From Pyrinomonadaceae bacterium (GTDB taxonomy: Bacteria; Acidobacteriota; Blastocatellia; Pyrinomonadales; Pyrinomonadaceae), in the NCBI GenBank assembly GCA_028284415.1, contig JANQRU010000007.1:969243-1033242 (forward strand): DNA of 64,000 bases. Reading direction: 5' to 3'. The position numbers and the translations under genes are program-made. The notes under the pieces were generated by a model. The model worked only from the letters and a program-made list of their open reading frames with translations, did no database searches and was not told the DNA's origin. Shown one piece after another: positions 27,200-28,987 of this stretch (the stretch's first letter is position 1; each line of letters opens with the position of its first letter).

Positions 27200-28987
27200 A
27201 TGGCAAAAATTGATCAGGGGAATCAGGTTCGCAGAGCAAGGATTAGAAGAAATGTTCAACCTCCGCCACCAAAGCCAAGAGTTCAAAAAACACAGGTTCA
27301 GCAAGAAAAACCTTTGGCTAAAAATGCAAATACAGTCAGAAACGACGCACAAAATTATGGCGATCAGCAAAAGGCTCGCCTCAATAGTCAACTAAATCAA
27401 AATGAACAAAACAATTCCGCTTTAATCGGCGGAACATCGGGAAGCACTTCGGGACAATTTGCCCAAAGCGAATCAAATGTTCGCAACACGGGAAGAATCA
27501 CAATTCCTAATGATCCGAATATGCCGAATGATTTTGTTGATAATGTTCGCACAGACCTGAATGCGATCGCTCCCGGCACGCGAGTTAATACCAGACCGAA
27601 TGATCCGATTGGTGGATTTATCTGGGATAATTGGGTTGGTAAAAATACTGCGGCTGTTGTAAAACCAGCTGATTCTTTTAGTCGCGTTCAGGGGCATGAA
27701 ACAGGCTATCGCTTAGTTGATCAACTTCAAAATAATCCAAATGAAGTGACATTAAATTATCAGGCTAATGATGCTTATGCTGCTCCACGAACACTAGATG
27801 GCATCGGTAGTGTTACAAATCCGGGAAGCGGTTCGGCAGTTGATGTTCACTACGATCCCAAATTAAATGTCGGTTTACCCGTGCAAGATACAAATGGTAA
27901 TTTGACCAATGCACCTTCAAATTCCGCCATTATACTTGGACACGAACTCAGTCACGCCTCGCATATGCAACGCGGAACACAACAAAATGTTCGTCCAATC
28001 ACGTCCATGAACGAACTTGGTTCGATTTGGGGAACACAAGGTAAGGAAAATGTTTTTTCAAGTAATGGTAAGAGTTATGTAGAGGCAGATAATCCGCAAA
28101 TTGGCTTGAGAGAAGAATATAGAAATGTCGGATTTGAGGGACACACATATGGAAACGAACCTTCTGAAAACTCTTTGCGTCGTGAATTGAATATTCCTGA
28201 AAGAAGAGTTTCCTATCAGTTTGATAACAGTTACCAGCAGATTACCAATACCCAAGCCAATTTACTTAGAACGCAAAATCGTTTGATGACTACTACCGAC
28301 GCAGTTGTTGACGGGGTTCGTGGCTCTCGCAACAGTGCTTTGATAAGTGCCGGATTCAGCACGGTCACAGCAATTGCACAAGGAAAAGATTTGCAGGGCG
28401 TTACGACTGATGCTGTCATCGGGGCAACTACTGGTGTTACGGAAGAGGTTATCGAAAGAGTCGTTAACGGACCACGTGCGGCAACAACTGGGATGACTAA
28501 CAACGCCAGCCAAGTTGCACGTTCAACGATGAAAGGGGCAGCGGTTGCAGGAGCGGTTGTTAACACAGCATTTGCGGTTCACGATCAATGGGATAATTTG
28601 CAAAATGACGCAACCCTTTCACAAGCGATCGGAACAATCGCAGGTGAAGCAGTTGTCGGTGCAGCTTCGGGGGCAGCTGGTGCTTATGCAGGGGCAATGG
28701 CAGGGGCAGCGATCGGTAGTGTTGTTCCCGGTGTCGGAACGGTTATTGGCGGAGTGGTCGGATTTGCGGTCGGTGCCGGAGCAGGCTATCTAGCTGATAG
28801 AGGCTTACGCGGGATAGGCGTTGACAGAATGGTTTCAAGTGCAGTTACCGCAACTTATGATGCAGTTTCAAATGTTGCTTCAAACGTCAGCGATGCGGTT
28901 TCAAATACTGTCAGCGAAATCGGTGAGGGGGCAAGAAATATGTTCGGAGGTGCAGTCAATCGGCTGTCATCCATTTTCGGCGGATAG
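27200..28987 (+). CDS. Toxin-like HExxH zinc metallopeptidase (NleD/HopH1-like M91 motif) with C-terminal glycine-zipper hydrophobic domain
   Basis: GAGGA RBS with no signal peptide and a Q/N-rich disordered N-terminus. ILGHELSHASHMQRG matches the HopH1-type HELxHAxHxxxG pattern. The C-terminal 230 aa is Gly/Ala/Val-rich with GxxxG/AxxxA zippers (GAAVAGAVV...AGAYAGAMAGAAIGSVVPGVGTVIGGVVGFAVGAGAGY). Confidence 0.6.
   Translation: MAKIDQGNQVRRARIRRNVQPPPPKPRVQKTQVQQEKPLAKNANTVRNDAQNYGDQQKARLNSQLNQNEQNNSALIGGTSGSTSGQFAQSESNVRNTGRITIPNDPNMPNDFVDNVRTDLNAIAPGTRVNTRPNDPIGGFIWDNWVGKNTAAVVKPADSFSRVQGHETGYRLVDQLQNNPNEVTLNYQANDAYAAPRTLDGIGSVTNPGSGSAVDVHYDPKLNVGLPVQDTNGNLTNAPSNSAIILGHELSHASHMQRGTQQNVRPITSMNELGSIWGTQGKENVFSSNGKSYVEADNPQIGLREEYRNVGFEGHTYGNEPSENSLRRELNIPERRVSYQFDNSYQQITNTQANLLRTQNRLMTTTDAVVDGVRGSRNSALISAGFSTVTAIAQGKDLQGVTTDAVIGATTGVTEEVIERVVNGPRAATTGMTNNASQVARSTMKGAAVAGAVVNTAFAVHDQWDNLQNDATLSQAIGTIAGEAVVGAASGAAGAYAGAMAGAAIGSVVPGVGTVIGGVVGFAVGAGAGYLADRGLRGIGVDRMVSSAVTATYDAVSNVASNVSDAVSNTVSEIGEGARNMFGGAVNRLSSIFGG

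Follow-up and report, generated by a model that had tools for sequence, protein, structure and literature searches.

A C-terminal glycine-zipper module paired with a DUF1795 gene on toxin-like proteins of Acidobacteriota and other bacteria points to an undescribed way of toxin delivery

Introduction

What does a long glycine-zipper segment do at the C-terminus of a peptidase from a soil bacterium? The question is raised by a 595-amino-acid (aa) protein encoded in a 64,000-nucleotide stretch of a Pyrinomonadaceae genome (phylum Acidobacteriota; assembly GCA_028284415.1, contig JANQRU010000007.1, positions 969,243 to 1,033,242 of the forward strand), the whole of which is referred to here as the window. 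An initial annotation, made from the DNA letters, had described the segment as a pore-forming or bacteriocin-like domain attached to a peptidase head. Here we report that it belongs to a conserved module of 244 aa that is found on unrelated toxin-type heads and is accompanied by a gene of the DUF1795/DcrB family, a pairing that points to an undescribed way of toxin delivery. Our preferred reading, to which we give roughly even odds (about 0.5), is that the module is a chaperone-held membrane-insertion hairpin that delivers or anchors the head. Eag/DUF1795 chaperones and transmembrane 'translocation' domains have been treated as a speciality of type VI secretion systems (T6SS), in which the membrane domain is N-terminal on PAAR effectors.

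Results and discussion

A conserved C-terminal module on an M91 peptidase

The protein has no signal peptide and joins a polar N-terminal region, a peptidase head and the glycine-rich module (Table 1). All peptides quoted in the initial annotation lie within its open reading frame (ORF), the coordinates given there were essentially right, and the peptidase head that it described is real: the head belongs to peptidase family M91 and carries the zinc-binding HExxH motif as HELSH at 27941-27955, with H248, E249 and H252 at least 90% conserved in the homologue alignment. Full-length homologues (n = 40, 38-64% identity) come from Pyrinomonadaceae/Acidobacteriota metagenome-assembled genomes and bear the NCBI name 'M91 family zinc metallopeptidase [Pyrinomonadaceae]'. 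To the XopG/HopH/AvrPtoH subfamily (NF041347) the protein is only distantly related, scoring 35.9 bits with the NCBIfam model, the cut-off of which is 150.

In an alignment of 25 homologues, conservation is highest over the C-terminal 244 residues, with a mean column identity of 66% within the close family, and columns G451, G478, G502, P510, G513 and G521 are invariant in a 55-sequence alignment that includes distant relatives. Residues 367-595 (28300-28987) consist to 64% of G/A/V/T/S, compared with 35% in the rest of the protein, and this strong compositional bias, together with low AlphaFold confidence, is the kind of signal that a low-complexity or disordered Gly/Ala-rich linker without specific function would give. 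Such a linker is effectively refuted by the degree of column identity, the residues that remain invariant in distant relatives, the fixed C-terminal place of the segment and its dedicated partner gene. The module is strongly conserved and under strong selection, and is more than low complexity that arose by chance.

Conservation and anatomy were both computed directly. The module is predicted to be all-helical, and two AlphaFold2 models, which are of low confidence and usable for secondary structure alone, both contain seven helices (approximately residues 353-393, 398-423, 436-464, 473-505, 513-534, 544-574 and 579-593). The fourth and fifth form the arms of a glycine-zipper hairpin, with the glycine ladder G494/G498/G502/G506 in arm 1 and G513/G517/G521/G525/G529 in arm 2, both in conserved register and separated by a turn of V-V-P510-G-V-G. 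The Gly/Ala-zipper domain of about 160 residues that had been proposed for this region therefore stands as regards the zipper, in the form of these ladders, but not as regards its length, since the module spans about 244 aa and the zipper core 66. Transmembrane or amphipathic helices, on which the original proposal depended, are predicted as two moderately hydrophobic hairpin helices (~473-506 and ~513-538) followed by an amphipathic tail. The hairpin is the sole hydrophobic region of the protein, with a Kyte-Doolittle maximum of 1.87 and a simple Hessa sum of +3.4 to +5 kcal/mol per arm. The family Gly-zipper_Omp (PF13488) matches the window protein below threshold (E = 0.0019, 18.5 bits, cut-off 25) and the same region of its relative P0041 above the gathering threshold (29.2 bits).

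The tail had been described as a series of SNV-type heptads, a description that the data contradict: it holds two 11-residue units, one of which is exactly missing from five homologues, and in 47 tails of the family the hydrophobic periodicity is strongest at 3.6-3.67 residues (power 72-83, compared with 29 at 3.5). The tail is predicted to form a hendecad-type amphipathic helix. Weak Apolipoprotein-family matches were obtained for the expanded tails of relatives, and Tandem Repeats Finder detected no DNA-level tandem repeat under the SNV tail. Both ends of the protein bear motifs that recur across the family (P0002-P0117), with M-[AG]-R-I-E-D (M-x-R-I-E-D) or MPPK[IV], followed by a Pro/Lys-rich stretch, at the N-terminus (window 27200-27230), and L-x-S-[IV]-F-G-[W] at the C-terminus (window 28964-28984). 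The polar N-terminal region of about 100 aa is a possible secretion signal.

The module is carried on many toxin heads

An exhaustive HMMER search with a profile of the module returned 1431 cluster representatives at E ≤ 1e-3, 95 at E ≤ 1e-10 and 35 at E ≤ 1e-30. This exhaustive search was needed, as a word-indexed homologue search with the module alone gave mostly fragments and generic glycine zippers, and a profile search of genome contigs with the module alignment was dominated by non-specific Gly/Ala matches, yielding 6 loci only, of which none came from the genome of the window protein. Low-scoring matches over 40-60 aa, to phage tape-measure proteins and a single LXG protein, are probably compositional and were not counted as family. 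Of the 115 proteins with at least 150 aligned module positions, 96 have the end of the module no more than 12 residues from their C-terminus, and most of the others have extra tail repeats that close in the same L-x-S-[IV]-F-G-W.

The module is portable and occurs on unrelated toxin-type heads. A Pfam scan of 76 relatives identified YwqJ-like deaminase (nine cases), DUF4329 (four) and RES (three) heads, as well as single cases of M91, C39-like and C70 peptidases, LRAT, GH19 and nucleotidyltransferase. For example, P0041 has the C-terminal module alone in common with the window protein, its head being unrelated. Similarly, the nucleotidyltransferase head of P0179/P0120 recurs as the C-terminal toxin of a classical toxin in the metagenome contig L024, a case of cassette shuffling. 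This contig is a toxin island: besides a member of the present family it encodes proteins of 659 and 429 aa that end in an Ntox28 and a nucleotidyltransferase domain, respectively. With a shared module, at least 10 head families, cassette sharing, an adjacent SUKH-1 gene and head-specific third genes, the family has the attributes of polymorphic toxins in the Zhang/Aravind sense, although it is atypical in that the shared module is C-terminal and the toxin N-terminal or central.

A DUF1795 gene accompanies the module

Whatever the head, the module gene has a DUF1795 gene no more than two genes away in 15 of 16 loci. The sole locus without such a neighbour belongs to the weakest member, a nucleotidyltransferase-headed protein from a Comamonadaceae genome (L012), which is followed by two small paralogous genes of unknown family (11320-12089 of that locus). 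The pairing was also recovered in the reverse direction, by searching metagenome contigs with the DUF1795 alignment: a module gene adjoins the DUF1795 gene in L021, L023, L024 and L025, and tail fragments adjoin it in L026 and L027, amounting to four of the five contigs of at least 5 kb plus one 2.4-kb contig, the remaining contigs (~1-2.7 kb) being too short to inform.

A profile built from seven of these partners and searched against 177,635 distinct PDB sequences matched EagT6 (6xrf) and PA0094 (1tu1) at E = 2e-7 and SciW (6xrr, 6xrb, 9mvg) at E = 0.007-0.04, all three being 'Eag' chaperones of type VI secretion; the sole other match (E = 0.24) is unrelated and a chance one. Within DUF1795, to which it belongs, the partner is most like the Eag chaperones, and it is a candidate chaperone for the hairpin. 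Eag chaperones bind and stabilise effector transmembrane domains (PMC7773334, PMC12881460), and the genomic pairing suggests that the DUF1795 protein may bind the hairpin in the same way.

If the partner acted instead in the envelope, the hairpin could serve as a tail anchor holding the peptidase in a membrane of the producer itself. The partner's Pfam family is named after DcrB, which in authentic E. coli form is a periplasmic lipoprotein, and the zipper core scores weakly to Gly-zipper_Omp, a family of envelope lipoproteins. However, neither the peptidase nor the partners have a signal peptide or lipobox, the partners starting with polar N-termini (MKLxxNEFTT..PDxWEDR) that set them apart from periplasmic DcrB, and the meaningful structural relatives of the partner by sequence are all cytoplasmic Eag chaperones. 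In addition, the hydrophobicity of the hairpin is below what a simple scale predicts for Sec/YidC insertion, and the heads are typical secreted toxins, some of them beside SUKH-type immunity genes. An anchor in the producer is, on this evidence, very improbable.

A third gene follows the head

A third gene tracks the head and not the module. M91-headed members have a 279-296-aa protein between the toxin and the DUF1795 gene (window, L001, L005, L006 and L016), and at the same position the distant M91 members in L008 and L009 have a 142-aa protein that matches one of its two internal repeats (pairwise E = 1e-4). Deaminase-headed members instead have either a 193-197-aa gene after the DUF1795 gene or an immunity-family gene (SUKH-1/SMI1_KNR4, E = 4.5e-7) upstream, a SUKH-1 gene lying beside P0041, and the P0081/P0082 group has a 160-aa gene upstream. 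With one gene tied to the module and another to the head, the pattern is that expected of a chaperone plus an immunity protein, and we regard the 279-aa protein as a candidate for immunity to the M91 head or for its inhibition. Assignment of this protein to a known immunity family is not supported, the matches being weak, HEAT-like and within a very small family. The protein consists of an internal duplication of a ~130-aa unit with the motif [KR]-[LF]-Y-A-A-x-L-L-x-E-I-D, which is present in single copy in the 142-aa protein (L008 10717-11142). At L025 (5064-7360), four tandem paralogues of the 160-aa gene precede the toxin gene in what looks like an immunity-gene array.

These patterns bear on whether the module could itself be the weapon, a glycine-zipper toxin that forms pores or depolarises membranes, with the enzymatic head as a second, independent activity. 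The glycine-zipper C-terminal domains of the LXG toxins TelE (PMC10434224) and EsxX (PMC12744356) depolarise membranes, two in-register GxxxG ladders are conserved here, and P0134 and P0140 may be head-less or short-headed. Moreover, Tde1 is translocated by permeabilisation (PMC10240207), which blurs the line between an autonomous toxin and the delivery hairpin that we favour, so that the two overlap. The autonomous toxin is nevertheless unlikely because of the many enzymatic heads, at least 10 of them different, which would be redundant, and because the constant companion is a soluble chaperone-type DUF1795 protein and not a membrane-embedded immunity protein as is usual for pore-forming toxins. 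The genes that vary with the toxin here follow the head, and the window protein has no Pfam, NCBIfam or PDB sequence match to colicin-type, LXG-type or other pore-forming domains. Of the pore-forming or bacteriocin-like domain proposed initially, what survives is a probably membrane-active module on a peptidase head; pore-forming or bacteriocin activity of its own is not supported, the many heads fitting delivery or anchoring better.

Relatives lie in type III secretion-like clusters

Genes of type III secretion systems (T3SS) lie beside the module gene in more distant relatives from at least two lineages. For example, L013 encodes SctV (FHIPEP), SctU (Bac_export_2), the T3SS ATPase SctN and an SctD-like protein (Yop-YscD_cpl, E = 1.4e-9, above threshold), along with a small TPR protein, two DUF1795 genes and two family members. 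SctN is next to the toxin and DUF1795 genes in L025, a 126-kb contig, SctU is next to the DUF1795 gene in L018, and FliO/P/Q/R-type export genes are present in L002/L008 (Pyrinomonadaceae). A 184-aa gene, an SLT gene and a ~600-aa gene form a common set beside the toxin-DUF1795 pair in L008, L004 and L021, with a ~303-aa gene visible in L008 and L004, while in L009 the 184-aa gene is all of this set that the 10-kb contig shows. The occurrence of T3SS core genes within 10 kb in so many independent contigs seems far more than chance would produce, a judgement rather than a computed statistic. Given that relatives have their genes within type III secretion-like clusters, we regard T3SS-type export as the leading candidate route for the window protein, although adjacency in relatives does not show that the window protein uses such a system. 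Full-text literature searches returned no paper that links DUF1795 to type III secretion or describes the module.

The same clusters suggest another explanation, in which the module is a translocon element of a divergent type III system, like SctE/SctB, and the proteins are translocator-effector fusions that build the pore. Relatives do lie between core T3SS genes and beside small TPR proteins that resemble class II translocator chaperones, and a two-helix hydrophobic hairpin flanked by long helices is translocator architecture in outline. Structural translocators are usually single-copy, however, whereas here many paralogues with different heads occur per lineage and even per locus (L013, L025); the conserved partner is DUF1795 and not TPR, the clade of the window protein has no nearby T3SS gene, and no sequence similarity to known translocators was detected. 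A translocon role is quite improbable, and the chaperone-held delivery or anchoring hairpin remains our preferred reading.

At L025 (10561-14700), the T3SS ATPase, which is 94% identical to that of L013, and a T2SSE-type ATPase lie just downstream of the toxin gene. A ParA/MinD-type ATPase is also encoded there, and both it and the T2SSE-type one are within ~8 kb of SctN and the toxin. Tad-pilus ATPases belong to the T2SSE family, and the observation, reminiscent of the way in which Tad is paired with T3SS* in Myxococcus (discussed below), serves as a lead only.

Comparison with known systems

The initial annotation had named the T6SS effectors of the Tse4/Tme type for comparison, but these are not the nearest analogues. 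No PAAR, prePAAR, VgrG, Hcp or other T6SS family was recognised in the window or in 20-odd related loci (among the 15 metagenome loci, Pfam was applied to L024 and L025), and neither the window protein nor any of 76 relatives gave a PAAR-family match. Closer analogues are the Eag-chaperoned prePAAR transmembrane domains, the zipper motif of Tde1 and type III transmembrane effectors.

The T6SS prePAAR effectors with Eag chaperones (Tse6-EagT6, Rhs1-SciW/EagR) likewise are multidomain toxins whose helical transmembrane region is rich in Gly/Ala and moderately hydrophobic. They too have an adjacent dedicated DUF1795 gene, of the kind that our partner profile matches in EagT6, PA0094 and SciW, and a separate immunity gene (a candidate in the present case), and their transmembrane region is proposed to cross the target membrane (PMC7773334). 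However, theirs is N-terminal, whereas the region here is C-terminal and the toxin head N-terminal or central. The N-terminal 300 residues of the window protein, where the transmembrane domain of a prePAAR effector is to be expected, contain none, and the prePAAR motif is absent from the N-terminus (MAKIDQGNQVRR...). The loci read contain no prePAAR, PAAR, Rhs cage or VgrG/T6SS gene, and the recurrent neighbours are T3SS-like. An Eag-bound transmembrane domain was matched directly in sequence in one case only, 6xrr_J, the Rhs1 prePAAR transmembrane fragment crystallised with SciW, which is the fourth-best PDB match of the module profile (positions 162-207) and, at E = 2.2, is non-significant and probably compositional, though noted as a lead.

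Tde1 (PMC10240207) also combines consecutive GxxxG motifs with an enzymatic effector that is bound by an adaptor or chaperone before secretion (putatively so here) and is proposed to permeabilise the target membrane, but it has a short N-terminal motif and Tap1 (DUF4123) as its adaptor, as opposed to a two-armed hairpin within a 244-aa domain and a DUF1795 partner. In the LXG toxins of type VII secretion (TelE, EsxX, LXG-T2) a C-terminal glycine zipper on a secreted polymorphic toxin damages membranes; their zipper domain is the only toxin and their N-terminus the LXG targeting domain, whereas the present proteins lack an LXG domain, carry an enzymatic head and come from diderm Acidobacteriota and relatives. 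The window protein belongs neither to the prePAAR/Eag-dependent T6SS effectors nor to the LXG glycine-zipper toxins or the colicin-type pore-formers.

Type III transmembrane effectors and translocators (Tir, SseF/SseG with SscB, chlamydial Inc) resemble the module in their bilobed hydrophobic hairpin just under the threshold of inner-membrane targeting, in chaperone masking of the transmembrane segment (PMC6110835), which would apply here by inference, and in the T3SS-like clusters of the relatives. They differ in using another chaperone family and, as classical anti-eukaryotic effectors, in being without the immunity-type genes and polymorphic heads found here; no T3SS was seen near the window gene. 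The M91 effectors NleD and XopG/HopH1 match the head, which scores above the PF14891 threshold and keeps HExxH, but these are small soluble T3SS effectors of animal and plant pathogens, in contrast to a 595-aa protein with a membrane module and a candidate inhibitor gene from a Pyrinomonadaceae-type soil bacterium. Gly-zipper_Omp proteins (SlyB/17-kDa-antigen type) have the two-helix glycine-zipper core in common with the module, which in turn lacks a lipoprotein signal and embeds this core in a much larger conserved domain with flanking helices. The closest working likeness, by analogy, appears to be the transmembrane-domain-plus-Eag arrangement with its topology inverted and, in relatives, a type III context.

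A proposed mechanism

Taken with the anatomy of the module, these likenesses suggest how a chaperone-held hairpin may work. Three polar or amphipathic helices are predicted to lead into the ~66-residue hairpin, with a zipper on each arm and the invariant proline at the turn, and the hairpin into the amphipathic tail with its 11-residue periodicity. In the producer, the moderate hydrophobicity of the hairpin would keep it out of the inner membrane and the Eag-like DUF1795 protein would hold it soluble, to be left behind on export. At the target, the hairpin and its flanking helices would insert into the membrane, so that the enzymatic head, here the M91 peptidase, is either carried across or anchored, while in the producer the 279-aa protein would most likely neutralise the peptidase. 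The steps have precedents, in that moderate hydrophobicity, with chaperone help, lets transmembrane substrates of type III and IV secretion avoid inner-membrane targeting (PMC6110835), the transmembrane regions of T6SS effectors are shielded by chaperones (PMC7773334), and glycine zippers permeabilise membranes to translocate the enzymatic effector Tde1 (PMC10240207). The computation itself shows a conserved module of defined anatomy, its exchangeable heads, the DUF1795 pairing, the third gene specific to the head and the T3SS neighbours of relatives, whereas chaperone binding, membrane insertion, the choice between translocation and anchoring, the immunity role and the secretion route are what we infer from these patterns.

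A wider scenario is more tentative and, in our estimate, doubtful: in soil Acidobacteriota (Pyrinomonadaceae) and other uncultured bacteria, a type III-like apparatus might deliver polymorphic toxins with immunity genes, each toxin ending in a self-inserting zipper domain for translocation that is held soluble by an Eag-type chaperone, a kind known until now from type VI secretion alone. Such an apparatus may resemble the needle-less T3SS* that acts with a Tad-like system in Myxococcus predation (PMC12075869).

Several observations weigh against the proposed mechanism. No T3SS or T6SS gene was seen in the 64-kb window, nor any secretion gene beside the toxin in the closest clade, which has the same chromosomal synteny. 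A precomputed 'T3SS_needle_F' label on the 184-aa neighbour of relatives was not reproduced and is not relied on, our own scan giving T3SS_basalb_I at E = 0.02. The indications as to the target conflict, since immunity-like genes suggest bacterial targets but eukaryotic hosts are the site of action of the known M91 peptidases (NleD, XopG/HopH), and the possibly head-less or short-headed P0134 and P0140 leave room for autonomous toxic activity. Enrichment of zipper spacing over composition alone is modest (small-xxx-small 49 observed versus 39.2 +/- 3.7 in composition-preserving shuffles, p ~0.005; GxxxG in the core 9 versus 4.5 +/- 1.6, p ~0.004), and the case therefore rests on position-specific conservation and not on motif counts. 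AlphaFold2 gave a predicted local distance difference test (pLDDT) score of 40 for the module with 19 close sequences (predicted TM-score, pTM, 0.34) and of 58 with 55 diverse ones (pTM 0.28). A Foldseek search of the PDB with the better of these low-confidence models returned nothing at E < 2.8, and neither the full protein nor the module profile had a significant match among PDB sequences, that to the BDLP paddle (E = 4.1) being weak, non-significant and no more than a lead.

Organisation of the locus and other features

The features of the locus are collected in Table 1. The window is an ordinary stretch of chromosome, encoding enolase, Obg, ribosomal protein L21, TsaD, RsfS, an M14 carboxypeptidase and an NfeD/SPFH pair, among others. 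The gene for the M14 carboxypeptidase (801 aa, 24670-27075) lies directly upstream of the toxin gene, a pairing that is syntenic in L001, L005, L007 and L016 and may reflect a functional link or merely a conserved chromosomal order; the closest clade has the same order of M14, toxin, 279-aa gene and DUF1795. A weak NfeD-like membrane protein (189 aa) and a 570-aa SPFH/Band-7 protein are encoded just downstream of the toxin trio as a two-gene unit of their own (30477-32857), and at the left edge of the window a Fic/DOC-family protein is encoded on the reverse strand (80-1144, E = 4e-19).

The whole gap between the toxin and the 279-aa gene (about 89-96 nucleotides) has a predicted folding energy of -25.1 kcal/mol (z = -4.1), a stability that none of 200 shuffles reached. 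The stem-loop that it contains looks like a terminator or attenuator, which a consensus terminator scan missed as its loop exceeds 8 nucleotides, and it could uncouple expression of the toxin from that of the accessory genes.

Local G+C rises to 0.48-0.52 at the module, compared with ~0.37 in the window. Horizontal transfer was considered as the source of this peak at 28-29 kb and rejected, as the peak follows from the Gly/Ala codons of the module (codon position 1 is 56% G). The same GNN-rich codons account for the two antisense ORFs over this region, which the initial annotation rightly dismissed as artefacts: antisense open frames are present in every homologue, and their lengths and frames are not conserved and grow with G+C.

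Table 1 Features of the toxin locus, with positions in the window unless a contig is named
Feature	Position	Strand	Remarks
Whole gene, 595-aa protein	27200..28987	+	ATG start; disordered N-terminus, M91 peptidase head, C-terminal glycine-zipper module
N-terminal region, ~100 aa	27200..27499	+	Polar; Pro, Lys, Gln, Asn-rich; begins MAKIDQGN
Peptidase_M91 domain, residues 163-336	27686..28207	+	Pfam PF14891, E = 1.5e-9, 38.8 bits (gathering cut-off 25)
Conserved C-terminal module, residues 352-595, 244 aa	28253..28984	+	Predicted all-helical, 7 helices
Glycine-zipper helical hairpin, residues 473-538, 66 aa	28616..28813	+	Predicted arms ~473-506 and ~513-538
Amphipathic tail helix or helices, residues 543-595	28826..28984	+	Predicted; includes the 11-residue repeat pair; ends ...LSSIFGG
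11-residue repeat pair	28859-28924	+	Two units, DAVSNVASNVS / DAVSNTVSEIG
Perfect 11-bp stem-loop and U-rich run	29014..29049	+	Between toxin gene and 279-aa gene
279-aa helical-repeat (HEAT-like) protein	29077..29916	+	Specific to M91-headed members; between toxin and DUF1795 gene; candidate immunity protein or inhibitor
142-aa DUF1795/DcrB-family protein	29919..30347	+	PF08786, E = 3.2e-15, 56.8 bits (gathering score 27.2); candidate chaperone
Antisense 111-aa ORF	28231..28566	-	Composition artefact
Antisense 83-aa ORF	28262-28513	-	Composition artefact
L024 toxin-island features	2621-4600, 14210-15499, 15791-16975	-	Metagenome contig

Implications

The chaperone family regarded as a T6SS speciality is here paired with a different, C-terminal membrane module on more than 100 toxin-like proteins without a T6SS hallmark, with T3SS-like clusters in two lineages. 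If the proposed mechanism is true, chaperoned self-inserting membrane domains would be a general way of crossing a target membrane that is reused by different secretion machines, and the family would represent a new polymorphic-toxin architecture with its trafficking module at the C-terminus. The module together with a DUF1795 gene would then be a searchable marker for new toxin heads and immunity genes, and the little-studied soil Acidobacteriota would gain a concrete antagonism system that includes an M91 peptidase and a candidate proteinaceous inhibitor.

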